A stretch of 64,000 nucleotides of DNA. It comes from Marsupella aquatica. Its lineage: Eukaryota; Plantae; Marchantiophyta. The DNA is taken from the NCBI GenBank assembly GCA_973895155.1, contig OZ316895.1, forward strand, positions 3,149,659 through 3,213,658, in the 5' to 3' direction. The notes below the pieces were generated by a model. It was not told the DNA's origin. It saw nothing but the letters and a program-made list of their open reading frames with translations, and searched no databases. Position numbers and translations under genes: made by a program. Of this stretch, positions 19,802 through 60,000 are shown in pieces (position 1 is the stretch's first letter; every line of letters starts with the position of its first letter).

Positions 19802-22800
19802 ATGGCTCAGGACGCCCCCAGTTTCGACCCCGGTTTCGTGTTGGATGAGGCATCTGGGCTCTACTTTCATGCCAGGTAGTGTGATTTCCGTACTTGGAAA
19901 GAAGCTTTTCCGATTATGACCATTAATTGGAGATGGATATGTGTAAACTTTCATGACTGGAAAATTGATTAGTATGCGATTTCCTTCCCATCTGGTCGCA
20001 AGTGTTAGGTTACGGGACTTTATCAACCCTTTCAGTTTCGTAATGCGTCGAGATCCAGCCGTGAAGTGATATTTTTGTCTTCCCTCATGAGAGTGTAACC
20101 GGGTAGATTCGAATTGATTTGTTGGTCTTCCGTCGTTAATGTGTAAGCTGGCAGAGAAGCATGCTCGATCATAGTTAGTAAGGCGTAACAATATGAGAGA
20201 TAAGAAGCAGAAAGGAATGTGCCTCATGTTCTTCTTTCAGTTTATAGCTGTACCACCTCGCAAGAACTTCAATTTGCCGTTCAGCACTTCTATACCAGTT
20301 CAAACTCAAAGGCTACTGTTCGGTAAGGAAGCTTGGAACTGAAGCCCGGTTGTTCAAGTCAATGGGACCGTGTATGGTGACAGCCAAAATAACAGACTGT
20401 GCACAACCGTAGTTACGTTAGTTCACTCCGAAGACATCAGCAAGATTGGGTTCATGACCGCTATGCTGCTCTTTCAGGGCTCTTTAGGACTGTTTGGAAA
20501 GAAGGAGCTTGAAAATGAGCAAGTGTAGTAGGTTTGGAGACACTTGATTGACAATTTTTCTAGTGTGCTTAATAATTTATGGGATTTAAATTCTAAAAGT
20601 TTTCTTTGAATTGCAGCTCCGGATTTTACCACGATGCAAGTGCTGGGTGGTACTATAACACAAACGATGGAGTCTACTATAAGTTTGAGCAAGGAGAGTA
20701 TGTTCCTATTGCGGCAATGTCCAGTTCTGAAAATGTAGTTCCCGAGGTTGAAACCAATGGAAAAGACTCAACGACTGAGTCTACAGCTTTTGAAGTAAAG
20801 GAGCTAAGGGTGACGAGCTCGCAGGTTTCTGCGCTTTCAAATTCTCTAGTTGAGGTCCCTCATGAACCTGTGCTGCAGTCGAGAAGTCCAGAGCGAGGTG
20901 ATCTTTCGCAAGTAGATGCTCCAAATGGGACTGGGTCTGTTCCTCAAGCAGAGACTGGTTCTTTGGAAGTCGGTTTCCCTCTTTGGTACTTTGACTCGTT
21001 ACGGTCAATATACTGGTACTATGATAAAGATACTCGAGCTTATTACAAATATAACGAGGGAGCTTACGATGCGTTGGGAGAGTCCACAGGTGAGGGGGAA
21101 AAATTAGCCGATGTCGATCAACTTCAGCAGGAACAGATCTATGTAAAAGGTAATTTTAAGACTGACGTCTTGTAGCTTTCGATATGAACATAGTTTTAGA
21201 TAAGCTCGTGAGCAAGCTGCAGCGGAGATAATTAGACTGACTGATCCCTGCCATGAGATGCTGAACGACCCATTCCCTTTTTGCCCGTTTAAATGAAACT
21301 TCTGATGATGGGGATTAGCTGCATTTGAAATCTCGCCGAGTATTCTAAAGTTGGGATTGGAGCTTTGGAATTGTAATTGACTTAACGGAATGGTGTTAGA
21401 TCTCATGCTTGGCACAATCAAGAAAGGCTTAGGAAATGTTAGTAAGTGGGCGTGGAAATGTTATATGTAATTCTAGGGCGAAGCAACAACTCCTGTTGAA
21501 TTTTGTTTTGCTCTGAATTGTGAAGAAAGCGGTGGAGAGATGGATAGACTCAGACTGCAAGAGACAATCCAGCCGGAAGAGAATGACGATAACCCCAAGC
21601 CTGCGTCAGGATGGTTCGTTTTTAACTTTAGTGTCGATTTTGAGTCTTGGTAGTTTCATGTGTACATCTCTACAAATGCTGTCGTTTATTTAATCAATGG
21701 AAGATTAGGGCCTGTATCTCTTGGCAATGTTTAGGCTCTTGTGAGAATTTTGGCGTTCAGATTGGAATTGCCTCTGTCAGGTGTATGCTTCTCTAGCCTT
21801 CAACAGTGGCAGTCTGTTAATAATGCTGTAGAGATGTTCTGTGCTAGTTTCGGTAGCTGAAGTTTTTCTTCCAAAGTAGTTTCTGTGTTCTGCAAACTTT
21901 GCCACTTTCAAGTTTCTTTTTGTTGTTGATCTTTATGCTCTATGGTTCACGTCTGGTACCATTGTCTATTCATATCCTTCATTGTTGTTATTCCTGACTT
22001 GTGTATGAATTGACAAGTCGTGTTGGTCCAGTTCTTGAACTAGAGGTGTTGTTTTTGCAGGATTGAGGAAACTCTTATTGATCTATACCTAAGAGGTTAT
22101 CCCAAGGACTCTACCGAGGACGATGGGCCATGGATTACATCAGCAGACATATTTTTGGAGGATTCGCCAAGAGACGTTTATTCGCCTCAACAAGGTTTTC
22201 AGGAGACTTATTACAACAGAAATAGTTTGTTGGTCATTGAGAAACAGTCACATGGGGATTTGAGTTATGATAAGAGTGTTGTGCCGTCATCAGTTGATGA
22301 ATCAGATGAGGGAAGTGAAGAACTGGAAGAAGGAGAATGGGTTCCTGATGAGCCGTTGCGGATAGTTGATGAAAGCCAGTTCATTGAAGGAGTTCAAGCT
22401 GCTGAAGGAAGAATGGACAGTGAAACGCTAGAATCCAGATATTTGTCGGAACTGTATGTTGATAACGGTGGTTACTCTGGAGATCTCGAAGATGGTGAGT
22501 TGGAGGACGGGGAGATCGAGCAGGACAATGGTGACGCAACAAATAATATTACAAATGAACTTACAACGGAAGGTCAGGACAATAATCTTACAGACAATGG
22601 CCAGAGAGTGGATGAAGAACAGTGGCAAGCACAGTTTGGGCAAGTAGTTCGAGAGAAGGCTAAGGAGTATCTTGTACCTGGTGCTATTGATCTGTGGGAC
22701 TGGATAATTGTTGAGATGGAACCAAATGCTTTGAAGCAAGGGAAAGTGACAAAGAAGCTGGTGGGAAGGATAGTTTCCTCTGTAACGAAGTTAGTTAGCG

Positions 22801-24823
22801 CTTCCAGTGGACTGATACGAACAAGTGCCATTCGTGCTGCTGAACTTGATTTTGTAAAGGTCTCGTCAGGTGATTACAAGTTCCTTACTACCTGATTTTG
22901 GATCATCAGTCAGAATTTCAATTGTAATAGCAGTAAGTGTTTATGAAACCTGCATTATATCTCCTAAATACATCTGCCATATGAAGCGTTATGGTTTAGT
23001 GCCATTGTGCTTGACCTTCTTTTTATTGCTTAGGTAAAATCTACAGACTACGTCGTCCCAGTAACAAGCATTTGAGTTCCTTGGGGGCGTACGATTCTTC
23101 AAACCCAACCAAAGATTGGGGCTATCCTGCTCTTGGACTGTCGCTTCTGGAAACATCAGAGGGTCCTTCGCTGGAACGTGGGATTGTGGCAAGTGATGAG
23201 GTTGAGCGAAGAACTAAGTCCCTTGTTTCAAAGCCATTTGTTCCCAACACTGGCCATTGGAAATTCCAGGGATTGGCCACTTCCAAGAAAAAAGTAAGTA
23301 AAGTGACAAGCTTAGCTTCAAAAGAAATTACAAAGTTGGCCTCTTTTTATTGCTATCATATAGATCTATACGTTTCTTCATATGGATGCAACGTGCCTGA
23401 ACAGCTATTTGAGTTCTGGTTTTGATCTGTCTTTTCGGAGAGTAACCCGTTTCCTATTTGTCACGTTCTTATTGAATTGCAGAAAGGAAGCGGGATGCCT
23501 GCTGCTCTGTTAGCAACAAAATATCTGTCCCCTGAGGAGATTTTACTCAATGAGCAGGTAAGGAGCAGATTAATCACATTTTATACAGGTTTGAAAGCTT
23601 GTCGATTGGTCTTTCATAATTCACGGAGAGCACAAAGATCACTGCATAAGCTGATGTCTCTAGTCCTCAAGGTGCTTCAAAGTTGTGACTGGCACACCCA
23701 AAATTGATCGGGGCACGTAAATTTTGACCGCACATACTCTGCAGCACATACTCTTGCAAAAGCCAATAAGTGCTAACCATAGATATGTTTTAGCTTTCCT
23801 GGGGCCTCATATCCGAGACTTCTTGTGGTTTAGACATTTGTTCCTGAAGCAGGTTTATCCACCCAGTTGTCTGATAGATCACCTAGACAACACGATTCAA
23901 CGTGATTCCTCGAACCCCCAAGCCCCGTCAAGACAACATTCCCGCTCGCGATTACCGCAAACCACGTGGTTTGGCAAAGATTGGATATGCTTGCCAGCCG
24001 ATCAATGCAATTTTTTTGTCCCATAACGTGCGTCATATTTCCAAAGACCAATTCATACTTAACATTAGAACCATCTATGCTCTCAGTTGGTCGGGAGGGA
24101 AACTTTTCTAGAGTGTCTGAAGTCTAGAGTTTCACGCCTTCGGGACACAACACGATAGAGCCATCTATGCTCTCAGTTGGTCGGGTGGGGAACTAATCTA
24201 GAATTTCTGAAGTCTGGCTTGGTTTCTGAACTCTTTTCAGTTATCTCTTTTGAATCAATTAAGTTTCTTGAATATCCTTTTAATATGCGAACTCTATATT
24301 CTGGACGATTACTGAAGATCTAACTTTGTGTTAGCAGAGAAAGCAGAAATACCGTGACCGGGCAGCAGAGCGGAGGACATTGCATGGTGGATTTGGAACA
24401 GGTCCAGGGCAGAAGGGTTTGACACCTCAAGAGCAGGAGAAAGTAGATGCTGAAAATGCTGCTGGGATGGAGGGTGCTTTGAGAAAAGCCTCTTTGGCTC
24501 CACCTCTTGGAAAGGATAACGTCGGGAAGCGCATGCTGGAAGGGATGGGTTGGAAGGAGGTTAGTGCTGATGGATATCCGTGCACACTTGTATGTGTACT
24601 TTGTTTCTTATCGAAGACAGAATGAACAGTTTTAGACCTGCTGGTGTGGGAGCTTGTTCGATCTTAGCAGATATTAGATCTGTTTGTAAGGTCTTCCGTT
24701 TGTGGCTGAGGTCCCAATTGTGGCTGTGGATCACAGGGCCAGACATTGGGAGTTGAAGGAGGTTTGGTGGCCCCCATCCAAGCAAATGGAAACGATGGTC
24801 GTGCAGGCTTAGGTTGGAGATGA
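19802..24823 (+). CDS. OCRE- and G-patch-domain protein (plant D111/G-patch family), multi-exon
   Basis: Exons about 19802-19875, 20617-21149, ~21526-21613, 22061-22869, ~23034-23292, 23483-23557, ~24338-24559 and 24737-24823 with GT-AG sites. OCRE: FVLDEASGLYFHASSGFYHDASAGWYYN..DGVYYKFE. Also WIEETLIDLYLRGY, YDSSNPTKDWGYP, YRDRAAERR, and G-patch NVGKRMLEGMGWKEGQTLG...GRAGLGW*. Confidence 0.88.
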
Positions 24824-28304: not shown

Positions 28305-30122
28305 TCAGTCTAGGGGCTGCAATGTGCTGACAAGACCTATACCGAGCTCTTCAGCAAGTTCGTCCCATACTGGTAAAAGGGTGGCAATTACTAATAACGT
28401 CATCACGGTCAAGAAGGTTTTCCTCCAAGATCCAACATCTGTAACGTCATTTAGGCAGGGTTTCTCTGGTGATCTCTGCGCAATCAGAATGTACAGGCCC
28501 CATGGCAATGACAGGGGCCCACCCAGCACTCCTAGTCCCAATAATAAATACGTGATAATACCGGAAATGTTAAGAGCACCTCTCCCCAATGCTGCTTGCA
28601 TTGCTCGACCGCCATCCAGACACCCTACCGGAAGAAGGTTGAAGGCAGTTGTCGTTAAACCACACCAACCCGCTATGACGAGAGGGTGAATAGACACAGT
28701 AGCTGCGTGCAATGCGGGGTAGCCGAGAACTCCCCTGGAGACAAGACCCAAAAGCAATGAACCTTGCAAGAGAAGGCTGGGCACCTGCACCATTTGATTG
28801 CTTGCGTCCGTGTTTGTAGACAGAATCAGCCCCACGCCAAACATTGACAAAGAAAGAAATCCGCCTGCGAGTGGCCCTGCCAACGAGATATCAAACTTGG
28901 TCTGCCTGTCGGGGCAGATGGACCTGAATTGAGTAATGGAGCCAAAACTGCCCAGGGTGATGTTTGGAATGAAGTAAGGAATGCCCAGTTTCACATTCCT
29001 GGGCGCAGCAGCAAGTCTATGACCCAGCTCATGTAAAACTTGCACTCCAAACACACCGTAAGCAAGTGGCAGAGCAGAGTCCACATACGGGACTAGCACC
29101 TGAAGATCAGGAGGCACTGTTGTCTCTGGATTGGTAATATACTGGACCACCTCAGGGGGCAGCCTGGAGACCTGAGACGAAATGCCAAGCTCGAGGCAGG
29201 TACCACCAGTGAGCAAAAATAAAACGATGGCTACAATATATTGCCATAATGTGGTTGGTCCTATATCTGAAACCTCTTCTCTCTGCAACACAAAACTCAC
29301 ACGAGGGCCACCACGAGGATCTTCCTCTTCAGAATTTGGTTCCTCTACCATGAAGAGATCGTACTTGGTCCCCATAACCTCCCTAAGACGCCTCTGCAAT
29401 TTTGCAAAAACTTCTTCCCTTTTCCCTCTCAGATTTCCCAGAAGCAAAACACCTTCTCCAAGATCTCCAAATGGCTCTTGTCCAGTGATCCAGAACGTGG
29501 AGTAACCAAACACGTTCTCCTTCAGAATCTTCACATCCTCAGGATCGACTTTCTCGGGTCCAATGAGCTCCACAAAGCTGAATGCATGGGGAAGCACATT
29601 AAGGTCCCCATCGCCAGAAGGTGGAGGGGCAGGGGTCATGTTCTCATTCGGTGTGCCGCTGCCTGATTCTGGTCGCTCTGGCTCCTTCTCCGTGGTGCCC
29701 ACACTTCCACCACCCTCTTTCTTGTCGCCATCGCCTTCACCAGCGCGGCAAAGCCTAAGCCTGGGTCTCCTTTGCGGATGAGAATTCTTGCTTAAGCCCC
29801 ACCTCAACAGATTCGCGCACTCTCCCAACCCCAAAACGACCCCATTTCCACTTCTACTTTCCAAATGAATCGTAGGCCTGCTGGAAATCCGAGCTTTGGC
29901 GTAGGATGCCCTAATTCCCATGCTGCTGCCATAATCAAAGACACTACAGCGCCCAGAACCGGACGCTCCTAGAGTTAACATTTGGGAGAAAGAGGTAGAG
30001 GAAGAGGAAGAGGAGGCAGGCAACGAAGAAGACTGACGGTGATATCTGCGACACTCCGGCCGCAGCAGACTAGAACTGCAACAAGAGTTGGAGGCTGAAT
30101 GCAGCATTCTCGTGACCCTCAT
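28305..30122 (-). CDS. EGY1: Chloroplast M50 zinc metalloprotease EGY1, intronless
   Basis: Ser-rich transit peptide-like N-terminus, then EKVDPEDVK..FGYSTFWITGQEPFGDLGEGVLLLGNLRGKREEVFAKLQ, the HELGH zinc motif, NLLPVGCLDGG and multiple TM segments. First ATG in the ORF is at 30122; the true start is uncertain. Confidence 0.93.
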   Translation of the reverse strand: MRVTRMLHSASNSCCSSSLLRPECRRYHRQSSSLPASSSSSSTSFSQMLTLGASGSGRCSVFDYGSSMGIRASYAKARISSRPTIHLESRSGNGVVLGLGECANLLRWGLSKNSHPQRRPRLRLCRAGEGDGDKKEGGGSVGTTEKEPERPESGSGTPNENMTPAPPPSGDGDLNVLPHAFSFVELIGPEKVDPEDVKILKENVFGYSTFWITGQEPFGDLGEGVLLLGNLRGKREEVFAKLQRRLREVMGTKYDLFMVEEPNSEEEDPRGGPRVSFVLQREEVSDIGPTTLWQYIVAIVLFLLTGGTCLELGISSQVSRLPPEVVQYITNPETTVPPDLQVLVPYVDSALPLAYGVFGVQVLHELGHRLAAAPRNVKLGIPYFIPNITLGSFGSITQFRSICPDRQTKFDISLAGPLAGGFLSLSMFGVGLILSTNTDASNQMVQVPSLLLQGSLLLGLVSRGVLGYPALHAATVSIHPLVIAGWCGLTTTAFNLLPVGCLDGGRAMQAALGRGALNISGIITYLLLGLGVLGGPLSLPWGLYILIAQRSPEKPCLNDVTDVGSWRKTFLTVMTLLVIATLLPVWDELAEELGIGLVSTLQPLD

Positions 30123-30983
30123 GCCCTGTCGTTTCTTCAGCTCAACAACATTCTCATAAGTATTCTTCGAGCTTGCCTCCCAGTACGAGGTTGTCGAGCA
30201 TTTCACCAACGGCCCTGCATCAAACGCCACCCACTCTTGTAATTCTCCACACGACCATCTGCGTACTCCTCCTCAACCCCAGCCAGCACCCTCTCCTCGA
30301 AGCCACACCTGCAACTCCTCCTCCTCTCAGCAGTCAGAAAGAGGTAACCCACTTTGAAATTCAAAGCACTGTCCTCCTCTCCTTCCCTGTCACAACAACG
30401 TCAATCTACGTACCCGGAGCTCACAGAAAATGCAATCCTGTAATCACAATCCTCCGGACGAGTCCCTGAGGAAATGGACAGAATCTCCTTCGAAATTGAA
30501 GCGCTCTCCTGTCCTATACTGCACTTCCTTTCCCGAAACCAATCCTACACACTGGGAGCTCACAGGACGAAAATGGAGAATCCGACTACCAACAATCCTG
30601 AGACTTCTGGAGCAGCCATTGCTGACATGGAATCGATGTATCCTGCTCTGAGCACTACTAAACCCCGTCCCTCTTCCAATCCCTCTCGCCCTCCCCCACG
30701 CTTCGTCTCACACTCGCTTTCTGTGAGATTGCTTTCTGCGAGAGTGAGGATGTCTGGCGGATATGATGGGCCTTGGAGATACGGGGGCCACCACCACCAC
30801 CACACCACACCATAGCTGAGACTGGCGTGGCGTGCGAGTGAACGAGTACACAGGTAACAAAGTGGGTCAATCCAAATACCCCTTTGCCCACTAAAGGACT
30901 TAACCACGCCCCTCTAGCATCTTATGGACTCGATGTCATATTATGGACTCACGAAAGTACTTAACCAGGCCCCTCTAGCATCT

Positions 30984-43400: not shown

Positions 43401-44706
43401 AATGGTACCCTCCCATGAAGCAGTGTCCTGGCCCTACAGTTGAGACACCCCTGATTGTTATTACTACTAGTTTGATTACTCTTTTCTTGAACATAAATAG
43501 AGATGAAAAAAAGAAGCAAAAAAATAGATTCTACACTATTTCTTGTTTATATTTGCCTCATCAGTGTTTTTCATTCACCCTCATTTTGTCCTTGTTTAGA
43601 ATTTAGTTTTTATTACAATATTTGGAGTTACCCAGCCCTTGAAAGTAGTTTCCTAGCCCTTGAAAGTAACTTTATTCTTACAATATATTAATAAAATTTG
43701 ATCGAGTGAAACTTGGCGAGAAAATTATCTAGAGGCTTCAATCTAGACCCTAGTGTGCACTGTCTCTGTCAAAACCTAGATACACCAGGTCTCACTATTT
43801 TGAGTATCATTTTATTGAAATTACGGAGCAAAATCTCACCCTAAACAAAAAATAAATGAAAAAGTGAAAAGTATTAGACTATGGACAGTGGTGTAAAGTA
43901 ATTTATATTCGCCATTTATGAGTAAGATTACATCCAGTGAAATCTCTAGTCACCTGGAAATGGACAACATTTCTTAGTAAAATTACATCCCGTGAAGACT
44001 CACCCAGAAGGCCGGAAATGAACAAGCAAAATGGACAGGCTCACATACAGCACCTTCCGTGCGTTCCTGTGGGAGAATAGCATTCGGGGAATGTCCTTTT
44101 TCCTAGTGAGGTACCGGCCGGAATGCAATTTGAATGCTGGCTTGATCAGTTGATCGTGAAGAACGAGAGGAATTATGGTAGAGTGACCGTACTTCGCCGC
44201 CAATGGGCACCTCTTCTTGATGATTGTCTCTGGAGTAAAATTCTGTCAGCATCGTCTCGACAATCGTGCTTGGCCGCCATCTTCTTGATTACGGTCTGTC
44301 TCGGCCTCGCTTCGGTAATGCCTAATGGTTCTCTTGAGGCGAAGAGTGCTCGCATTATTGGTATCCGGAGGAAAGGGATGACAGCTATTTGACGTTCTTG
44401 ACCGATCTTGGAGAGACATGTGGGACTTTTCTCGAAGGGACGAAAAGGATTCTTGTGGATAGTGGAACGGGCTTGGAGGACGGTGAAGGTAGAGGCCATT
44501 TCTGTTGCCTTTGTTGCAATTTTGTTCGTATCTGCTTTGATTTGTATTTTCAGTGGCTTCTGGTGAATTCCACCTCCTGTTTTTCTGAGGAATTGGCAGA
44601 GTTACTCGTAGAATTGCGGGGGTGAACTCTCGGACGCTCCACCTGACTTTACTTTATCGTGAACTTCACAGGCAAGCAGAATCTGGAGACGCGGAAGAAG
44701 ATAGAG

Positions 44707-47700
44707 ATGGAGATAGATTCTCTTCCCTTGCCCTTCACAACAGGCCGCAAGGCGGACTTTCAGTTTGAGAAAATCAGACTGGATGAAGAGATTGCGAAGG
44801 AGGACGACTGGAGGTGGGCTGTTGCCAAGGCATTTTTCGACCACAGAGGCCTTGTCGCCGACCACATTACCTCTTACAACAACTTCGTGGAGAAAGGAAT
44901 ACATGAAATGTTCAAGGAGGCTGAGCCATTTGAAGTTACACCGACTGAAGAAGGTTCCGTCCAAACGAAGGTTGTGGTAAGCTTCGGTGGAGTAGACCTC
45001 AGCAGAAAACCCGAGGTGGACGCCGATGATAGAGTAATCAACCCACAAAGCGCTGCCGAAGAATCGGACGGAAGTAAGAACGCAGATTATGGGGTTGGAA
45101 AGGGCAAAGGGGTGAGCTTGAGCTGGGTTACGAATGATGAGGCCGGTCCCAGCTCGAAAGCAAACGGCGATGCCGCTTTGGGAAGTGCTAGTTCAGGGGA
45201 CGCCTGTCAGAAGCTGAAGGGAAAATGTGATCATGCCACAAATGGGTTGAAGGAAGATGAAGAGGAGCCACCAATCATCTCGCAGGATAAGTGGGGAATT
45301 GATAGTCCTCCAACGAAAGTAGGCATGGACGAGGATATCGAAGAGGATGGTCCCAGTAAATCAGGAGAGAGTGAATATATGGACGTCGACGACCTCACTC
45401 AGGGGAAGACAGGCAAGGTTGCTTCGAAGGTTTCTCAGTTTAGCAAGTCTAGGAGCGCAAATGCGAGTCTCAGGCTCCTGCCTGTGGAGGCTCGAGTGAG
45501 AGGGATGACGTATTCTTCTCCGATTTACGTCAAGCTCATTCTAAAGGTTAGATCATGCTTACATTGTTAGAAAGCTTTGGACAGGCTGTGTAAAGCTCTC
45601 GTTCTCGGGACTCTCCTTTCACTTACTGTGCCGTGTCCTATTATCTGTTGGTATCCATTGCATGTCCATCAAAGCTAATAAACTCACTCTCCTAAACAAA
45701 CGATATGTGTTTGGCACAGACCACTACCCAGGTAAGCGAGCAGCCTCCATCAAAGAAATCGAAGTCTTCGTCTTCTTCCTCATCATCGAGAAAGAGATCG
45801 TCTACAGACACCAGAGAATGTCGTGTGCTGCTTGGCAGGATTCCTGTCATGGTGAAATCGTCTTTGTGCCACCTGAATTCTCAGAGCTCTCATGAGCCTC
45901 TGAAAGGTGACTGCAGTTTTGATCCCGGAGGCTACTTTCTAATCAAAGGCTCCGAGAAGGTACATCTTCTGTCCATGCACTTCATCAGTTACGATGAGCA
46001 TTTCCCCTACTTGTGTGAAGTGATACGCCGGTGGGAAATCTCCTGTTCATAACATTAATCTTCACGATATTTGTCTAATTGGAATCTGTGGTCTCCAGAG
46101 AATATTGCTCGTGAATGTAACTGCATGAAGAATCATCCTGAATCACTTGTACCTGAATGATATAGGTAATCGTGGCTCAGGAAGAAAAGATTCTGCAACG
46201 ACTTTGGGTGTCTTGCTCGAACGGCGTATGGTCGGCTACTTGCACAAGCAGACGCAAAGGCTTTGCTAACTACAATTTTCACAAGACCATAGTGAAGTTG
46301 GCTGTTCCCAAGAAAAATGGCACAGGCCAAGGCGGTGCTTTGCCATTGATAACAGTGTCTCTGTCGGGTATAGAATCGCTTCCTGTCGGTGTTCTTTACT
46401 CTGCCCTTGGTGTGTCTTCTGACCGTGAAATGTTGGAAATGATATGCGGTGATCTAGATGATACAGAGCTGCTTCAAGTTATTTGTCCCTCATTGGTCGA
46501 ATGTGACCGCGCTCTTGAAGGAGCACTGAAGGACTTTTCTGACAACACGTTTGCCGAAGCTGCTAGCAAGCGGGACAAAGCAGTGGCCCTATTCTACGTT
46601 GGGTCCAAGAAGACTTTTGGCACGAAGTCATTCGACGAGCAGACAGTAAAGGATCTACTCCAAGTGAAGCTCTTGCCACACATAGATTCCAGTGACAGGT
46701 GTAAGGCTCTCTATTTGGGATACATGGTTAGGACTCTTGCGTTATGTTTCTTAGGACGCCAACCGGGAACAGATCGTGATGACATGAAAAACAAGCGATT
46801 GGAGTTTGCTGGTGAGGTCATGAGTCACCAGTTCAGGAAGCTCATGGGTCAAGTCATCAATACAATGAAAAAGAGAATGCAAAAGCACCTGTCAAAAGGA
46901 ACTGAACTTCAGAGTATTGAGAAGTATCTTGATGACAAAGTGATCACTAGGGGCCTCAAAGTGGCTTTCACAAGCGGTAATTGGAGGGGCCATGACACGG
47001 TCAAGAACTCCGGTATAGTATTTGACCTCAAGAGAGGAAATCCTCTTTGGACACTTTGTCAATTGCGAGAATTGAGAGTCTTTTTTCCTCCCACTACGAG
47101 AGTTGGAGACGAAGCTCGCCATCCGTAAGTCTCATTCTTAAATGGCCATAGTTTCAGTGATTGCTCGCAGCAGTTGTTCAAGGTGTTTTCCCCACACTAA
47201 TGCCTTGCAAAGCTTGAGACTTTAGCCGGCGTTAATGTTTCGTTTTTGAGGGATCTGAGACTTTGATTGCAGGACTTTTTCTCAATGGGGTAAAGTGTGT
47301 CCCATTGATACACCTGACGGTGAGTCCTGCGGGTTGGTAAAAAATATGGCACTTACTGGAATTGTAAGCTGTGCAACTCCAGAAGCGCCAATCCTGAAGC
47401 TGTTGGCAGATTCGAGCATCGAGGCACTCGAGTCGGTGAAGGATCTGTCCAGCTTGCACAAGGCTATCAAAATATTTTTAAATGGAAGATGGATAGGTAT
47501 AGTAGCAGACCCCCAAGAAGCAACCAGGTTGGCTAACAAAATCAGGGAGGAGAGACGTCGAGGACCTGCAAAACCTGATCTAACTCAGGTATACGACAAT
47601 ATTGTAACCATCCCCAATGAATCGTGAGTGCAGCAACAAACTTTCTATCAGCATAATCCCGGTGCAGTTTATAGTTAACCTTGGATGTCTATGTTCTATG

Positions 47701-49744
47701 CAGGTGGAAGTAGTGCAGCACAATAGCCGCCGAGAAGTCCATATCAGCACTGATGGTGGCCGAATTGTACGACCCCTTCTAGTCGTGAAGGACCAGACGT
47801 TAGTCCTGAACGAGGACCATGTAGTAGCTATTCAACATCGTGTTGATAAAAAGAAATGTTTTCCGTGGTTATTAGCAAAGGGAGTTGTGGAGTTGCTCGG
47901 AATCGAAGAAGAAGAAAAGGCCATGGTCGCTCTTCATGGAGAGCATATTTGGAACGCAAAGGAGAAGGCGGAGGGCGGTCAGAAAGCCGTACAGTTTACG
48001 CATGCCGAAGTTCATCCTTCTCTGATTCTTGGTCTAAGTGCATCTGTCATTCCGTTCCCAAACCGGAATCAGAGTTCGAGAAATCTTTTTCAAGCTCATA
48101 AACATAGTAAGCAAGCTATTGGCTTCTATGTTACGAACATCAACAGTCGAGCAGACACTGCAGGACAACATCTATTCTATCCTCAGGTACACTTGGAATT
48201 TTGTCACGGGCTGTTTTCGATAGTTATATTAGTTCAGGTTCGCCCTCCCATGCTGTTTTACTTCTATTCTGAATGCTCCACTCTTTTTTGTTGCCACCAA
48301 GTTTGCTGTGGATAAGCTGTTTATGTATGTGATCGTCATTTCCAGGTGCAACTCGTGAAGACAAATGCATATGAGTGCCTACAAAAGCCAGAGATGTTTA
48401 GTGGGCAAAATGCAATAGTTGCCATTGCCTGCTACACAGGATATAATCAAGAAGATTCAATCATTATGGATCAGTCGTCTCTGGATCGGGGAATGTTCAG
48501 GACAACCCATTATATGACTGTTAAAGCGGAGGAAAGAAAAGACATAGAAACCTTTGGAAAGCCCAGCGAATATGATATCGGTGGAGAAAAGCTTGGAAGG
48601 TCTCTCGAAAAATTGGATGAAGACGGGCTCCCAGTTGTAGGGTCGGCCCTGGGTCCTAAAGACGTCATAGTTGGCAAGCTGAGCAAGTCACAGAGTGATA
48701 ACAATTCCTGGCTCACAGCTGATCGCAGCCAGCGACTCAAAGCCCATGAAAAAGGCAGAGTCGCACAAGTGGTCCTGGTGCAGGACGAAGAAGGGCAAAA
48801 AGTTGCTAGGGTTAAATTGCGGGAATCACGAATGCCGCAGGTTGGAGATAAATTCTCTTCCATGCACGGCCAAAAGGGCGTTGTCGGTATGGTCTTCACA
48901 CAAGACGACTTACCTTTTACCAGTGAGGGCATTGTTCCGGACATAATCATCAATCCCCATGCTTTCCCAAATAGGCAAACGCTAGGGCAAATGTGCGAGA
49001 GTGCTCTGGGAAAAGTAGTGGCCAAGACTGGAGAGAGGCTCTTTGCAACGCCTTTCAACCCTTCATGTACAGTGGAATCGATTTCAGACGCACTACAGCA
49101 GTAAGTTTTGTCTGTTTCTGCAAAGGCTTGCCATGACATCGTTCTTTCGGCTCTGAGGCGTTGAAAGACGCTCTACCTGAAATAGTTTGTTCTTCTTCTT
49201 GTACCCAACAAAGACCAGCCTGAGGGACTTACTGTTGTTCGTCTGTTGATACAGGGCTGGATGTGAAAGATGGGGTACAGAGGTCATGTACAACGGGTTT
49301 ACAGGCCAGCCCATGGAGGCGAAAATTTTCATGGGGTCTACCTTTTATCAAAGGTTGACTCACATGGTTGAAGATAAAATAAAGTTTCGGAGCCGTGGGC
49401 ATGTGCACCCACTGACGAGGCAACCTGTGTCTGATAGAAAGCGGCATGGTGGAGTGAAATTCGGAGAGATGGAAAGAGATTGTTTAGTAGCACACGGTGC
49501 CGCAGCCACTCTTCAAGAGAGAAGTTTTATTTTGAGTGATTTCCACACGGTGCATGTGTGCACTGTATGCGAACAGCTAGCTAACTGGAATTCGGAAAGA
49601 GTGCCAGCTTGCCGGCACTGCACCAAAGAAAAGAAGAAAGGGAGTTCCATTGTAAAGGTGGAGTTACCATATGCTTGCAAGCTTTTGATACAGGAGCTGA
49701 TGAGTATGTGCATATCCGTCCGTCTGAAACCAGAACTTATGTGA
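44707..49744 (+). CDS. NRPD2: DNA-directed RNA polymerase IV/V second-largest subunit (NRPD2/NRPE2)
   Basis: Exons 44707-45546, 45720-45959, 46166-47124, 47273-47588, 47704-48186, 48346-49100 and 49255-49744 (GT-AG, frame-consistent; an upstream exon is possible). Motifs: GRIPVMVKS, FDPGGYFLIKGSEKV, TPDGESCGLVKN, GYNQEDS. GDKFSSMHGQKG and HPLTRQPVSDRKRHGGVKFGEMERD are NRP(D/E)2-like rather than RPB2 (GDKFSSRHGQKG; TRQPAEGRSRDGGLRFGEME). Confidence 0.9.
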
Positions 49745-52515: not shown

Positions 52516-55500
52516 ATGGCGGAAGACACTTCTATGCTGGTCAAAACGTCCGACGTGTTTGTCCGGGCGCTTGAAAATGAGGGCGTTGAGTGAGTTTTGT
52601 TCTCCTCTCTGTACTGATTTTGTTGCATCCCGATTCTCCCTTTCTGGAATTGTATCGCTGGATTTAGCGTGCGGCCCTACTTTCTTTTCTGCATTCTCTT
52701 GTGTACCCATCTTGTGTCTGGATCTTGTCGAAAGCAGATCAATTGTGTCCTAGTCCTAACACATCTAGTATCCTTTAGCTGCTGGACAAATGATCGGTGC
52801 CTGATCCTCCACGGTTGAAGGCTGTCACAAACTTTGGAAAACTTGATGGATGTTACACTAGAGTCAGTTGCACAGCGACGGTGGTCGTGGATTTGAATTC
52901 TGGTATTCTGTATCTGGATCTTGTCACCTTCACTGCTGGTTTGCTGATGGCATGTCGTTGGCGAGTAGTAAAGTGTAGAATGTCGAAAACTTGTAGCTTT
53001 TCGACTAACGTCTTTGTCAAGTGTTGTGACGAAGAGGACTGTTTCGGACTTGGAACTCTGTTCTCTATCATCCTTACATGGTCCCACATTTGAGTTGGCC
53101 TCTTGCATCATGCATTCTCTGAATGTCATTAATGTCTAGGGACCATGAACAGATCCGAAAGTTTATATGATGTCGCTTTGCGATGCGGCGTTGAACATGA
53201 TAGCTGTCACCAATATCGCAGGAAATTGTGGTTTGGGTGACTTTCACTCACTTTGCCTTCAGTGCATCCATTGGCTATATGCATTTGTTGGATGTTACTG
53301 AGGTGTAGTAGCGGAAACTAGATTTGTGAACTTTTCTTTTTCTGTTTATGAACAAGCACCAGTAGGTCTAAGGGCGCGACTACGATGAACGGACCTTCCG
53401 TTCATTTTGCTAGCTCGCTTTGAATGTAGCTGTAGCATGTAGCATGATTTCATCAATACTCTAAGCTGACCCTGAAAGAAATTTCATCGTTACGAGTGAA
53501 GGCTGAAGCTTGTTGAAACCACGTCCCACTCTACCGGTGTCTCCCACGACCTGGGCTATGTGGATTGTTCTCCGAATTACGGAGCTCATGGAATGGGGTG
53601 TTTGTCCTCCGAGCATGCAAAAATGCAGCGCTGGTCCTGACTTGTCAAACCTGTACTGCGAGCTGTACTGTCGATGTTTTCGCTTGAGCTTGATCTTCAA
53701 TCTTACCGGTCGAGTATTTGTGGTCTTGTTTCCGCCAGGTACGTCTTTGGCATACCGGGAGAAGAGAATCTTGATCTGCTGGACTCCCTAAGGAATTCTA
53801 CGATCAAACTTGTGGTGACGAGACATGAGCAGGCCGCTGGTTTCATGGCTGCGACGGTTGGTAGATTGACTGGGAAAGCTGGAGTCGCTTTGTCCACCCT
53901 TGGACCAGGAGCTACAAACTTCACTACAGCGGCTGCGTATGCCCAGCTGGCTGGATTTGCAATGATGATGGTCACTGGCCAGAAACCAATTCGGAAAAGC
54001 AAGCAGGGCTCATTTCAGATCGTGGACATTGTTGAAAATATGCGGCCCATAACGAAGTTCACAAAGCAGATACAAGATGGGGATCTTGTGCCGTCACTTG
54101 TGAGAGACGCTATCAGATTATCTGAGGAAGAGAAGCCTGGAGCTGTGCATCTGGAACTGCCAGAAGATATAGCTCATCAGATGATCGATGTGAATGACGC
54201 CCACCTTTTTCCAGTACACCCAGTGAGGCGACCAATTGCTGAGGCGAAGGCCATCCGACAAGCGATTGATATGATTCAGGCTGCAGACACTCCGCTCCTG
54301 CTTGTAGGTGCTGGTGCAAACAGAAAATTGACGCAAAAAATGCTTTTGGAATTTGTGAACAAGCTGGAAATCCCATTCATCACAACTCAAATGGGAAAAG
54401 GGGTTATAGATGAGTCGCATCCTCTCTATCTGGGTTGCTGTGCACTATCAAGCAATGATTACGAGCATGTCTGCATTGAGAAAGCAGACCTTATCTTAAT
54501 GATTGGCCATGATGTGGTTGAGAAACCACCTTTTATTATGAAACACGGGAAGCCGCCTCTAGTGATCCATATCCACTTTTATACTGCGAAGGTGGATAAT
54601 GTGTATTTTCCTCAGTTGGAAGTCGTGGGAGACATTGCAAATGCTATTTGGCAATTGAAGGAAAGTCTGACGAAGCAACCCCATTGGGACTTTTCGTACA
54701 TACATCAGATGAAGAAGGAGCTCGAAGCGCACTTGCTGAAGGGCGTAGATGACCCTCGATTTCCACTCATGCCACAACGTATTGTTGCCGATGTCCGGAG
54801 AGCTGTTCCGTCTGATGGAGTTGTTTGTCTTGACAATGGGATGTACAAAATCTGGTTTGCCAGATGCTACAAGGCGTATGAGCCCAACACACTGCTTTTA
54901 GACAATGCTCTGGCAACGATGGGTGCAGGACTGCCGTCAGCAATCGCGGTTGCAATCTTGTATCCGCACAAAAAAGTTGTAGCTGTTTGTGGGGATGGTG
55001 GTTTCATGATGAATTCCCAAGAAATGGAAACTGCCGTTCGCTTACAGCTGAATCTCACAGTCCTTGTGTTAAATGACAACGCTTTTGGGATGATCGTATG
55101 GAAGCAGCAAACACAACATTTGCCCAAGTGGGGCTTAGATCTCCAGAATCCCGACTTTGTAGCATATGCGCACTGCTACGGTGCGAAAGGCTATCGTGTA
55201 ACAGCACCTGATGAGTTTCAGAAAACTCTTGACAAATGTCTCAGTGAAGGGGGAGTGAATCTCATCGAGGTACCAATTGACTATACTTGGGCAAATGCGA
55301 TCCTCGACAAAGAATTGCCAGGAATTATGAAACCGAAGATGGCCGATGAGCAGACGAAACCAAGAATCTCGTTTGCTTTATCTGAAGCAACAGCCATCCC
55401 ACCCACTGTTAGTCCTGGGCCTCAGTCACCTCGTATTCATAAAGAAGAGAAGATTCCTGCCGAGCCATTTGAGAAGCAGGAGGCATCTGCATCACTGTCC

Positions 55501-57063
55501 TCTTCTCCTCCACTACTTTCTTCTGCTCCCAAGGCCGAGTCTAAGGCTCAGATTCCCAACATTCAGCCTCGAACACCTACACCAACAGCTTCGCATAAGC
55601 CAGCCGAACCCTCAAAACTTCGAGCTACTGAATATCCACTGTACATTGCAAACAGAGCCTACACTCCAAACTTGGATCTTGAAGTTACTAATAAGTACAC
55701 TGGGCACGTTGCTGCACGCTGTGCTCTGGCCGGTCAAGCAGAGATTAAGGAAGCTATAACTGCAGCAGAAAAATCCATGCCTGCTATGGCTGCTCTAGGG
55801 AGCTACGAGAGGAAAGCGGTGCTCGAGAAGGTTGTTGCTGAAGTCAAGGCTCGCTTCGAAGAGTTTGCACAGGCACTATGTGTAGAGGCTGGAAAACCAA
55901 TCAAAGACTCCAGGGGTGAGGTACAGCGTCTGATTGAGACTTTCCAAATTGCAGCAGAAGAAAGCATTCGCATATATGGCGAATATACCCCCTTGGACAT
56001 TTCTGAGCGTGGCAAGGGTTACCAGTCAATCGTTCGGCGTTTTCCAATTGGCCCTGTGAGCATGATCAGCCCGTTCAACTTTCCCCTGAATCTGGCTGCC
56101 CATAAGATTGCACCCGCACTGGCGGTTGGTTGCCCTTTTGTGCTGAAGCCAGCAAGCCGTACCCCACTGGGTGCGTTACTTCTTGGAGAGATTTTATCCC
56201 GTTGTGATTTGCCTGTGGGTGCATTTTCTATCCTTCCCTGCGCAAGAGGCGCTGCCGATCTCTTTGTCACAGATGAGAGATTCAAACTTGTTTCGTTTAC
56301 TGGGTCGCCAAAGATTGGCTGGGAATTGAAGGCCAAATCAGGAAAGAAGAAAGTGGTTCTTGAGCTTGGGGGAAATGCTGCGTGCGTTGTTGAGGATCTG
56401 ACACCCGATCTCGATACAGTTGTGGAACGTATAATCCATGGCGCATTTTATCAAAGTGGGCAATCGTGCATCAGCGTCCAACGAGTTTACATTAAGGAGA
56501 ATCTGTACGCTACTGTGAAGGAGGCGCTTGTCAAGGCAACATCTGCGCTACGTAAGGGTGATCCAAGCGATGAAAATACTTTCATTGGACCTCTGATCCA
56601 TGAGTCAGAAGCGAAGAGAATAGAAGGATGGGTTGAGAAGGCGATTGCTTCTGGGGCGAAGGTGTTAACGGGAGGAAAACGTGATGGAGCCTTCTATGAT
56701 GCAACAATACTAGAAAATATTCATACTGAAACTGAGGTTCACGTAGAGGAGGTCTTTGGTCCACTCATTGGGCTGCATTCATACTCAGACTTCAAAGCAG
56801 CTATTGCTGAAGCCAACAAGTCAAAGTTTGGTCTGCAGGCTGGAGTTTTTGTGACCGACTTGAACAAGGCTTTCTACGCTTTTGAGCAACTGGAAGTTGG
56901 TGGCGTCTGCATCAATGACGTCCCCAGCATGCGTATTGATTCCCAGCCATATGGAGGTGTGAAAGACTCTGGACTCGGTCGTGAGGGTGTGAAATACGCA
57001 ATGGAGGACATGACTGAACTCCGGGTCATGATCCTTCGAAATGCTGGGCAGCTTAACTCTTAA
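52516..57063 (+). CDS. Fusion protein: bacterial-type acetolactate-synthase-like ThDP enzyme + ALDH21-type aldehyde dehydrogenase (about 1132 aa, 2 exons)
   Basis: Exon 1 is 52516-52589 (MAEDTSMLVKTSDVFVRALENEGVE), followed by a GTGAGT..CCGCCAG intron and exon 2 at 53739-57063. ThDP part: YVFGIPGEENL, RHEQAA, TLGPGATN, GDGGFMMNSQE...LNDN. Pro/Ser linker at about 55320-55630. ALDH part: ISPFNFPLNL, LKPASRTP, FTGSPKIG, LELGGNAA, FYQSGQSCISVQR, EEVFGP, YGGVKDSGLGREG. Confidence 0.92.
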
Positions 57064-60000
57064 GTATTTAACAGCTTCTCTTGTTCGAAGAGAAGATCTT
57101 ACCCTTGCGTGGTTTGATGAAGGCTGGGAATAACTAGTTTTGAACAGTTCATCAATTATGTCAATGACCGTACCCTTATCCTGTTTGCAAGCTTGCTTAG
57201 TTCGGAAACTGTACATTCTCTTTCTATCAGCCTGACAGCTTTCAGGGTTCTTACTCTTACTCCTCCCAAGTAACTAGAAACCAGGATCGCGGATCAGTCT
57301 CAACTCAGGCTTGGAGTATGCCTCACTCGCCTGTACCGATCTAGAATATTGCAGGATACAGAGAAAGCCGTCACACGAGGACGCAAACATCCTCCAAAGC
57401 AATCAGAGAAGCAGCAGTAGGGATGACCTACTTTTGAGGATATTTTGTTGTAAACTGAGATTGTGTGGGTTTCCAACCACTGGTTGAGCCTCAATGGATA
57501 TGCTCAAAAGATGGGATTCCTTAAGAGCCATGTCTCTTCACCTAATGCCATATAGGAGAACTTGCTCTTTTTTTTGGCATCATTGGTTGTGTGGTACGCC
57601 AACAATAATAACGTCTGCTGTAAACTTATCATGTGCGTCATTGACCCTCCGTTTTCACTTGATACGTAGCCCAGCACCGTCTTGCTAAAAAAACAGTTCT
57701 CATCTCTCTTCGTCCTACCATAATTAAGCAGATACAATTCTATCTTTTCTGCTTTTCATGGAATGGAATTAGATAAAGAAGATGGACCACATAGTCTAGT
57801 TATATGTCCGCCAATTGGTCAGGGTTTTCCATGCAGAGCTTATGCAAACAGTGGGTCTAGAACATCAAACATTTCATTCTCTAAGATGGAGAAGAGGCTA
57901 CTCGCAACAGTCTCAGCATGATTATCTGATCATTGTTATCCATGAAATTCTATGGTTCTCGCTGAAACTGTAACTCTTGGAGTTCCTGCATAATTCGGTT
58001 CCTCTTGCTGAACTTTCACGGATTCATTCGAACATTGCTATTTGTAAGCAGGAACAACTGAATATCAGAGTTTCCCGGAAGATCCTAATGGCATGGCCTG
58101 CTTGTGCCCTCTCCAGATTCAGGGGCAGATGTCATTCCATCTTTCTCCTCGGTAAAGCAAGATCTCAAGAAAATCTATGGCCAGGAATATGTAAATTTGC
58201 TCGTTTCAGGCATTTTGCCTGCACGCAGACAGACATTTCTAGCATCTGAAATTCTGAATCGGTCGCTCTCCACAGATGTGAATTCTTCCAGTATCGTTAC
58301 ATTTACATTCTCATTGAACTACTCTACCAGCCAGTTTACCAGCCCTGGAATGTGCTCTCATGTGGCACGAGGCAATGAGTCCTACCATAATCGAAACTGT
58401 CTAATGGAGTTTTCTAGTGAGCAGGTTGACCAGCCCCTCCTTTCCTGCGGTTTACACTTTGGTGGGCGAGGAAAGGAAGGCCAATATTATGTTAACCAAT
58501 GCTTTGTCGAGAACACCATCTTTACATTGGACGGTCTGGATTAAGTTCTCACTTGGTTGAAGGTCTCTTTCCCACTTTTCTTCAACAGTGTTGAAAAAAA
58601 CAGCAATTGCCCTCACACATCAGACTTACCCTGCAATCACTGCACCCTCTGGTCCGACACATCACTTGACAGTAGTGTGTTTCGTTATTTCACTTGAGTC
58701 TGTTTTAGTATTTCACAATGTGTTGTTTTCTAGGTACCAAAACAAGTAAATTTTTGTTTGACCTGCACATACCAGCAATATGGGATTTGATGGTTTCTTG
58801 GGTAACATCAGAGATTTCTGTTCAGCAGTCAACTCCATTTCTTTGCTTTGCACAAAAAATAGGTCATGTGTTTTCTTTGATCCTGCTATCTGTTCAAATA
58901 TAAATTCGTCAGTTAATCGATCAATAATTGGTGAGCTATTCAAATATATGAAAAGAGAAGAACCCAAGGTGGATACAATCACAATAGAGAATTCTTCGAG
59001 TACACTTGTTGGAGTCACCATTAGTAAAGGTCACCCTCACAATCAATTTAATTTCTAGATTCGTAAGCTGTAAACCATGTTTTGGGGTTGACAAACTATG
59101 ATTTCCAGCAATGCAAAACCCTGCACTGTCCCTTTAAAAAAAGAAAAACTCCGCGCTGTCAAAGTAAATGACTTCTTATTCAGATCAAACACTGGAGGTT
59201 TGGAGCCAAAGAGAACACAGGAAGTACATTCCCTAGTTCAAGGTCTCTTTCCATGGAGTAAAACAGGCTTGCGACTCTACTGTAGATGTCTTTTGCGCTG
59301 AATGAAGGTTCGAAATTCAGACATTCTGCTTATTTAGGCCAGATCGAACCAAAATCTGAGCCAACGAACTCTACTTTAACTCGCATTGTGGGTGCTTCCT
59401 GGAGATTCATTTCTTTCCCTAGCTAACTTGCAGCAAGAGTGTGCGGTCTAGTGACCTATTTTCCTCTCTCTTACCCTTCATCACTATACCGCGAAGAACC
59501 GGAGAGATAGCAGGCCGTGCATTGTAGCAGGACGGCAGCGGGGAAAAGGATTCAAGGTGACCACAACATTTGAAGGCGAGAAGTGCAGGAACTTACAATA
59601 CTGACTGGGGCAACGTTTTGCTGATCAGATTTTCACAGGTGCGAGAGTTCAATTTGAATTACGGAAGGAGCTGCTACAACAGCTACGTTCGGAGATTGAA
59701 AGACAGAAACATCTAGAGTACCATTGTGTCACAGGTTTGCTTCTCTGGATACTCTCTGTCGCTCTTTTGTCTTGGTTGGCATGTGCCTTGAAGTGGAGAC
59801 AGCCCATTTCTCAGGCCAACGCGATAACATCTTGACGAAACAGTTTTAGAAATAAGATAGCTATTTGAGTACCGTTCCTGATCTTCATCACTGTGTTAGG
59901 GTACAAAGTTGACGATAATGTAGAAATTCCATTTTTCACTCTGTTGGGTAGAGAAACAAGGGGAAAAACTAGAAATGGACTGTTAGAAATGTCCGAACCA

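Follow-up and report, generated by a model that had tools for sequence, protein, structure and literature searches.

Can one plant protein decarboxylate a 2-oxoacid and then oxidize the resulting aldehyde? The question is raised by a gene at positions 52516-57063 of a 64,000-nucleotide stretch of DNA from the liverwort Marsupella aquatica (contig OZ316895.1, positions 3,149,659 to 3,213,658, forward strand; hereafter the window), which encodes a thiamine diphosphate (ThDP)-dependent enzyme and an aldehyde dehydrogenase (ALDH) of the ALDH21 type on a single chain. Comparative analysis points to a cytosolic one-chain bypass that would convert 2-oxoglutarate via succinic semialdehyde (SSA) to succinate and NADPH, with the linker between the halves acting as a tether, a reading to which we assign a probability of roughly 0.75. 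The gene neighbours of bacterial relatives carry the most weight for 2-oxoglutarate as the substrate.

Structure and authenticity of the fusion gene

The gene contains an uninterrupted open reading frame of 1140 codons (53641-57063, plus strand), and its spliced coding sequence of 3399 nt (Table 1) encodes 1132 amino acids with a stop codon at the end only. The original prediction, made from the DNA letters alone, placed two whole enzymes on one exon; both halves are indeed in frame, but the ThDP half starts on a separate upstream exon, which supplies its first ~25 residues. The motifs it had named were all recovered (FGIPGEENL at 53746, RHEQ at 53821, GDG at 54991, NDN at 55072, LELGGN at 56359 and GQSCIS at 56458), as were the catalytic Glu and Cys of the ALDH half. 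Pfam analysis returned all three TPP-enzyme domains and Aldedh, every one well above cut-off.

A single contig from a public run spans 53998-57600 without a break and with 21 differences (X10 record 8), and an assembly artefact was therefore dismissed; the run belongs to another study than the one that agrees with the window letter for letter and may have been its origin. Further contigs came from runs X1-X4, which sample related organisms and were guessed to be RNA, there being no RNA label on record. Contigs of run X2 join 52589 to 53739 and so omit exactly 52590-53738, while in X1, X2 and X4 contigs break at 53739 with exon-1-like letters. The linker is crossed in one piece by X3 record 17 (53739-56838), X1 record 4 (55132-55806) and X4 record 12, and a scan of the linker for a GT-type donor motif found none.

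A lengthy single exon and the nearness of bacterial relatives (60-66% identity) might suggest that two genes were misassembled or read through, or that bacterial DNA contaminates the sequence. Contamination was dismissed because the gene has a spliceosomal intron and the window holds an intron-split Rpb2-family gene and other eukaryote-type genes. Together with the independent contigs, the placement of the protein among liverworts in the trees described below and complete fusions in fern and red-algal transcriptome sets, this largely refutes an artefact, which is a negligible prospect. The ThDP-ALDH21 fusion gene is a genuine and apparently expressed plant nuclear gene.

The ThDP-dependent half

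The ThDP half scored 804.8 bits against the PRK08322 hidden Markov model (cut-off 509), the family that had been predicted for it. It fell below cut-off on models for biosynthetic acetohydroxyacid synthase (AHAS) and catabolic acetolactate synthase (ALS): TIGR00118 (333 vs 538 bits), TIGR02418 (394 vs 551) and PRK08617 (433 vs 510). According to its description (PMC10418658), MaKGD of Microcystis is an assayed 2-oxoglutarate decarboxylase that is inactive on pyruvate and in which mutagenesis showed E50, D435, D462 and M410 to matter. The comparison was made with a metagenomic near-copy of MaKGD (L135, 550 aa), located by motifs from that paper, which carries all 17 of the residues numbered there at the same numbers and scores 876 bits on PRK08322. 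The ThDP half is 40% identical to this protein and keeps 11 of the 17 site residues, including the equivalents of the four mutagenized residues and of K386 and K471. E50, M410, the GDG motif and D462 correspond to E55, M419, G443-D444-G445 and D471, giving a full cofactor and catalytic set.

Docking of 2-oxoglutarate into a MaKGD model gave contacts with Q254, V382, K386, A408, L467 and K471 (PMC10418658); three of these six docked contacts, both lysines and the alanine, are identical in the ThDP half. Both lysines recur in every protein of four groups, the eukaryote-type fusions (29/29), plant stand-alone proteins (8/8), bacterial operon proteins (59/59) and bacterial fusions (42/42), and are invariant over the rows tallied (158 of the window's branch and 20 of the branch of the cyanobacterial enzyme OgdA). 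The same positions hold Q/W in a biosynthetic AHAS and Y/Q in a catabolic ALS. In PDB 13bb chain A, the nearest solved ThDP structure, which carries the name acetolactate synthase, Met replaces the first lysine and the second is kept.

The original prediction had placed this half in a GEENL-type group that includes OgdA. The shared PRK08322 family bears this out, but the half belongs to a sister branch rather than to the OgdA branch itself (a clade of eukaryotes and OgdA was rejected by the approximately unbiased (AU) test, p-AU 1.4e-45). Trees were built from subsets of 78, 99, 40 and 36 rows (random draws within groups) by a quick search under LG+G4, and the ThDP tree had a single long AHAS as outgroup. 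Because of this sister position, we infer the substrate from the family, the two conserved lysines and the gene neighbours, and do not transfer it from a close assayed relative. This comparative evidence favours 2-oxoglutarate as the likeliest substrate, as had been predicted, and the half is likely a 2-oxoglutarate decarboxylase.

The ALDH21-type half

The second half also matched its predicted family. The nearest solved structure is moss ALDH21 (PpALDH21, PDB 5MZ5; 673 bits, E 2e-201), every other assayed ALDH scored at most 315 bits, and identity to a moss-type ALDH21 of Ceratodon (P0453) is 63%. Members of the ALDH21 family are more than 40% identical to ALDH21A and closest to it, and on these figures the C-terminal half belongs to the family. 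Stand-alone ALDH21-type proteins in Balamuthia (P0385) and Nuclearia (P0393) extend this family beyond plants and algae. At 56940-57060, runs X2, X3 and X5 contain loose contig ends that resemble the C-terminus of moss-type ALDH21A more than that of the fusion, a hint of an additional stand-alone ALDH21 in these samples or of co-sampled mosses.

In PpALDH21 the SSA carboxylate is held by Arg121, Arg457 and Tyr296, as stated in a preprint (bioRxiv 10.64898/2026.01.13.699213). Alignment placed R755, Y929 and R1090 of the window protein at Arg121, Tyr296 and Arg457, respectively; the numbering allows for a presumed 18-residue tag on the PDB chain, with which all three site residues are in register. 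Among the eukaryote-type fusion rows Arg121 is kept in 39/39, Arg457 in 38/39 (one row is truncated) and Tyr296 in 37/39, and all 39 have an Arg at the position of PpALDH21 Arg228, which we take to bind the 2'-phosphate of NADP+. The arginine pair was considered as a unique SSA signature and rejected after a control with an archaeal lactaldehyde dehydrogenase (3PQA), which marks it as a clade trait. Judged by its residue identity with moss ALDH21, the half is likely an NADP+-dependent succinic semialdehyde dehydrogenase (SSADH).

Gene neighbours of bacterial relatives

Bacterial neighbourhoods were surveyed in the best 80 of 597 confirmed loci. The nearest bacterial sequences are 58-66% identical to the ThDP half and 57-64% identical to the ALDH half (Alphaproteobacteria operons; Burkholderia-type ALDHs 5J6B/5KF0/5JRY). 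An ALDH gene lies within 4 kb of the ThDP gene in 60 of the 80 loci, in 59 of these just downstream, as in the fusion, so the ThDP enzyme and an SSADH-type ALDH are coupled genetically both here and among the bacterial relatives. These 60 ALDHs comprise 39 of the ALDH21 type, 17 of a sister family (all 17 with the same Arg/Arg/Tyr set) and four of the SsaD type; ALDH21 or SsaD thus accounts for 43. All four SsaD-type proteins scored best on PRK09406 among NCBIfam models, below its cut-off, and the one of the four that was run against the PDB is nearest the cyanobacterial-type SSADH 4IT9/3VZ1. In the OgdA branch, an SsaD-type ALDH stands alongside in 55/80 flanked loci. Two unrelated ALDH families, each nearest an assayed SSADH, therefore partner the window's branch. 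In addition, NADP-glutamate dehydrogenase, an enzyme that produces 2-oxoglutarate, adjoins the ThDP gene with an above-cut-off score in 15/80 loci (divergent in 7, same strand in 8, a gap of 26 nt in one).

The four loci with a ThDP-SsaD pair (L007, L011, L012 and L036) belong to ~1 Mb genomes, two of them named Magasanikbacteria and Uhrbacteria. In these four incomplete assemblies, ketol-acid reductoisomerase (KARI) and acetolactate decarboxylase (ALDC) were each found in 0/4 and no marker of the branched-chain amino acid pathway was seen; the pair may be an NADPH source in reduced genomes. In sphingomonads the ThDP gene is directly preceded by a D-2-hydroxyacid dehydrogenase-like gene (L065:2802-3779 and 14 related loci), and one protein, P0103, has both D-2-hydroxyacid dehydrogenase and ThDP domains. 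The arrangement may connect a hydroxy acid, 2-hydroxyglutarate or another, with the module, or may be plain synteny. A genome scan estimated ~2200 matched stretches for the window's PRK08322 branch, and a plasmid search returned bacterial homologues, with no cyanobacterial name among the best 40 of 168 listed.

Proposed function and alternatives

In the proposed mechanism, the first half would carry out a ThDP/Mg-dependent non-oxidative decarboxylation of 2-oxoglutarate to SSA, and the second would oxidize SSA to succinate in an NADP+-linked step, likely yielding NADPH. The linker of ~100 residues is poorly conserved, with 2-25% identity outside Calypogeia. An AlphaFold model folds both halves and leaves the linker disordered (residues 579-652; mean predicted local distance difference test (pLDDT) 75, predicted template modelling score (pTM) 0.51); it fixes no orientation of the halves and is uninformative on contact between them. 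Because the linker is variable and disordered, it would more plausibly act as a tether, keeping the halves at high local concentration, than as part of a fixed tunnel, and since both parent enzymes are tetramers, higher-order assemblies are probable. There is no transit peptide: the N-terminus aligns with that of bacterial relatives, and nearly all fusion homologues lack an N-terminal extension. The fusion protein is therefore likely cytosolic.

Several observations weigh against the 2-oxoglutarate bypass. Identity to the OgdA branch is 37-42% (67 full-length loci), little above that to catabolic ALS, and the literature read contains no assay of any protein from the window's ThDP branch. Six of the 17 MaKGD site residues are changed, three of the six docked contacts among them (Q254 to S, V382 to N and L467 to M). 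The lysine contacts were obtained by docking into a model, not by mutagenesis, and since K386 also occurs in 80/96 and K471 in 54/96 more distant representatives, the pair is no tight signature. Likewise, 3PQA has both arginines of the SSA site and differs only in the tyrosine, so the Arg/Arg/Tyr set is consistent with SSA and no proof of it. Among the bacterial loci, 20/80 have no adjacent ALDH (some are cut short), linkage to the NADP-glutamate dehydrogenase gene gdhA is confined to Alphaproteobacteria and reflects few independent events, and a full-length glutamate dehydrogenase is present in 1/4 of the small genomes. Finally, transcript support consists of relatives' contigs from runs guessed to be RNA, and the X5 metatranscriptome, the sole run on record as RNA, gave no continuous bridge across the linker at the likeness used.

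The same two steps might act mainly on another acidic 2-oxoacid (for instance 2-oxoadipate to glutarate semialdehyde and glutarate, or sulfo- or phosphonopyruvate): the changes Q254S, V382N, H385Y and L467M are near-invariant in the branch and could signal an altered specificity, the ALDH half scores high, if under cut-off, on the profiles of SafD and PhnY, enzymes of other anionic aldehydes, and the D-2-hydroxyacid dehydrogenase gene lies upstream in 15/80 loci. We nevertheless consider it unlikely, as the four SsaD-type partners and 15 gdhA neighbours indicate C5/C4 chemistry, no gene for lysine, sulfonate or phosphonate catabolism was identified among the recurring neighbours (larger clusters), and the C-terminal half is far nearer moss ALDH21 than any other assayed ALDH. 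A pyruvate enzyme, either an ALS or a pyruvate decarboxylase passing acetaldehyde to the ALDH half as in a pyruvate dehydrogenase bypass to acetate, is suggested by the family label "acetolactate synthase large subunit" and by the nearest solved structures, which are so named. That label also covers MaKGD, reported to be inactive on pyruvate (PMC10418658), and the scores under the AlsS and biosynthetic AHAS cut-offs, the Lys/Lys pair at positions where ALS residues differ, the missing transit peptide and an Arg/Arg/Tyr channel that fits a carboxylated aldehyde all speak against it. An acetolactate role is disfavoured further because the four genomes with the ThDP-SsaD pair, incomplete as their assemblies are, show neither KARI nor ALDC, and because Marchantia, which has the fusion, is a branched-chain amino acid auxotroph without its ordinary ALS (bioRxiv 10.1101/2022.08.31.505973), a result that compartmentation could also explain. 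Overall, a pyruvate enzyme appears quite improbable.

The halves might instead be uncoupled, the ALDH clearing SSA derived from γ-aminobutyric acid (GABA) and the ThDP half performing an unrelated carboligation or carrying little flux. Moss aldh21 knockouts build up GABA and glutamate, according to the preprint (bioRxiv 10.64898/2026.01.13.699213), the ALDH half has disappeared from this gene in mosses and from a second copy in Calypogeia, and the disordered linker leaves the domains without a fixed orientation in the model (pTM 0.51). Operon linkage over many phyla, the occurrence of two fusion types and the like conservation of both halves argue for a shared intermediate, however, and we give uncoupled halves very little credence.

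Distribution and origin

A search for fused-length homologues found 202 proteins, the 120 best of which were listed. The order ThDP then ALDH21-type occurs in 38 of the best 120 of 202, 10 of the 38 being partial at the N-terminal end. The leafy liverwort Calypogeia fissa supplies the nearest named protein among the matches listed (87%), and both halves cluster with liverwort sequences in trees. Named fusions among these matches come from liverworts (Calypogeia, two Riccia and Marchantia, P0034) and ferns (Ceratopteris, Adiantum, Pteridium and Psilotum), and from zygnematophytes, chlorophytes, one red alga and one thraustochytrid (Spirogloea, the gene model "Mesen1", presumably Mesotaenium, Ostreobium, Bryopsis, two Coccomyxa, Elliptochloris, Rhodosorus and Hondaea). 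Those of Pteridium, Psilotum and Rhodosorus are full-length in transcriptome-derived sets. Both halves are similarly conserved from algae through ferns, and the proteins are named hypothetical, acetolactate synthase or NADP-glyceraldehyde-3-phosphate dehydrogenase (NADP-GAPDH) in databases. No seed plant is among the named rows of three homologue lists (120 best each); many rows are nameless, which leaves absence unproven.

The original prediction knew of no description of such a fusion in plants. None was found in the literature searched either, whether of the fusion, its eukaryotic range or its role, as judged from listings, and older ALDH21 or OgdA papers may touch on homologues; in the available portion of the moss ALDH21 preprint (bioRxiv 10.64898/2026.01.13.699213) the words "fusion", "Marchantia" and "fern" are absent. 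The gene is not the one-off of a single plant, though: by sequence comparison it is an old and widespread eukaryotic fusion. This bifunctional enzyme, present in seedless plants and in algae, is apparently undescribed and would represent a variant of a known bypass pathway.

In Physcomitrium and Sphagnum the ThDP half stands without the ALDH half. Because these moss proteins are nested within fused streptophyte sequences (SH-aLRT, the Shimodaira-Hasegawa-like approximate likelihood-ratio test, 100), this reads as a secondary loss of the ALDH half from the fusion gene in mosses, which still have a stand-alone ALDH21. Besides its full fusion, Calypogeia fissa has two shorter gene models, 620 and 692 aa long (P0032 and P0504); P0032 ends early in the linker, after the ThDP half, and may be a recent repeat of the moss-type loss or a broken copy. 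The moss stand-alone ALDH21 lies outside the clade of fused streptophyte halves, and this position and its 63% identity suggest a paralogue rather than a split-off half. A split of moss ALDH21 from a fused ancestor was tried and set aside (SH-aLRT 91 in one tree, dropping to 57 with fewer rows), and the alternative went unrejected (p-AU 0.27); a separate origin from the sampled bacteria was weakly rejected (p-AU 0.016).

The rejected clade of eukaryotes with OgdA rules out a plastid (cyanobacterial) origin of the ThDP half. The gene would instead derive from the fusion of a non-cyanobacterial two-gene operon with the order ThDP enzyme then ALDH, either once and early or with later spread between eukaryotes. 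In a second fusion type, proteins of this ThDP branch are joined to the sister ALDH family (43 of the best 120 of 202, some from Candidatus Obscuribacter), with ALDHs 32-38% identical to that of the window. Donor tests allowed grouping of the eukaryotes with ALDH21-operon proteins (p-AU 0.44) and with bacterial fusions (p-AU 0.52), so the independence of the two fusion types is argued solely from their differing ALDH families. In these Obscuribacter-type fusions (P0035-P0075, P0078 and P0117), the NADP+-linked arginine is absent from 40/43 rows.

A broader scenario, which we regard as evenly balanced, would make this an ancient cytosolic single-enzyme route from 2-oxoglutarate to succinate, of bacterial-operon origin, in algae, liverworts and ferns. 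The original partner of ALDH21 would then be this decarboxylase and not GABA transaminase, mosses would use two genes (an uncharacterised stand-alone ThDP protein and ALDH21A1), and seed plants would have lost the module.

Comparison with known systems and implications

The cyanobacterial OgdA/SsaD pair (Synechococcus PCC 7002 A2770/A2771; Microcystis MaKGD) shares PRK08322, the catalytic residues and both docked lysines with the window protein, also pairs with an SSA-type ALDH, and has the same predicted net reaction. It is encoded by two genes, whereas the window protein is one chain with its ThDP half in the sister branch (~40% identity) and an ALDH21-type ALDH ~30% identical to the SsaD type. 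OgdA/SsaD stands in for a missing 2-oxoglutarate dehydrogenase (OGDH), while plants have a mitochondrial OGDH. The bypass from 2-oxoglutarate to succinate by OgdA/KGD and SsaD is described in PMC5160925. Moss ALDH21A1 (PpALDH21), a cytosolic NADP+-dependent SSADH with substrate and catalytic residues identical to those of the window protein, is stand-alone and assigned to the GABA shunt, whereas the window's ALDH is fused. Bacterial PRK08322-ALDH operons have the gene order and site residues of the fusion and are mostly two genes; Obscuribacter-type fusions share its ThDP branch and differ in ALDH family. Plant AHAS and catabolic ALS have the same ThDP fold and database label, but the window protein falls below their cut-offs, has other pocket residues and no transit peptide, and they lack an ALDH partner. 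A "putative OGDC [OGDH complex] in land-plant chloroplasts" (PMC4224347) is an ordinary ALS and not this gene. PutA, PaaZ, AdhE and ALDH1L also join an aldehyde-producing domain to an ALDH, none of them with a ThDP domain; a PutA-like tunnel is doubtful here because the linker is long and disordered. The words "thiamine" and "ThDP" are absent from the accessible part of a 2025 review of ALDH fusions (PMC12041015).

If the bypass operates, seedless plants and many algae would add to mitochondrial OGDH and the GABA shunt a third path from 2-oxoglutarate to succinate, one that is cytosolic, CoA-independent and NADPH-yielding, and models of redox supply and of the carbon/nitrogen balance in Marchantia, Physcomitrium and Ceratopteris would change. 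It would also provide a source for the cytosolic SSA that ALDH21 oxidizes, and a function for a very large bacterial PRK08322 branch mislabelled "acetolactate synthase". ScALDH21 is in use as a stress-tolerance transgene. Succinate falls by ~20% in moss aldh21 knockouts, according to the preprint (bioRxiv 10.64898/2026.01.13.699213). A one-chain decarboxylase-SSADH could be a useful part for engineering succinate or 4-hydroxybutyrate pathways.

Genomic context

The features of the window are collected in Table 1. Open frames at 9261-10235 (minus strand), 11707-12561 (plus) and 22044-22895 (plus) had no Pfam match.

Table 1. Coordinates of the fusion gene, its parts and other features, as positions in the window
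Feature	Position	Strand	Remarks
Exon 1	52516-52589	+	ATG at 52516; first ~25 codons of ThDP half, 74 nt
Intron	52590-53738	+	the only one; GT..AG, 1149 nt
Exon 2	53739-57063	+	3325 nt, rest of coding sequence
ThDP-enzyme half on exon 2	53739..55323	+	to ~residue 553; NCBIfam PRK08322; E55, K395, M419, GDG 443-445, D471, K480
Linker	55324..55626	+	~residues 554-654; rich in Pro/Ser/Ala/Lys/Glu
ALDH21-type half and stop codon	55627..57063	+	~residues 655-1132; E900 and C935 catalytic
Second-largest RNA polymerase subunit gene	44647-49744	+	multi-exon; Rpb2-family domains in five open reading frame pieces; ends ~2.8 kb upstream
655-codon open frame with Peptidase M50 domain	28305-30272	-	Pfam
Exon with OCRE domain	20597-21175	+	Pfam

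Within the intron of the fusion gene (53300-53770), some patches are covered at low depth by contigs of relatives in the runs guessed to be RNA, which may reflect conserved intron sequence, a retained intron or an alternative 5' end.

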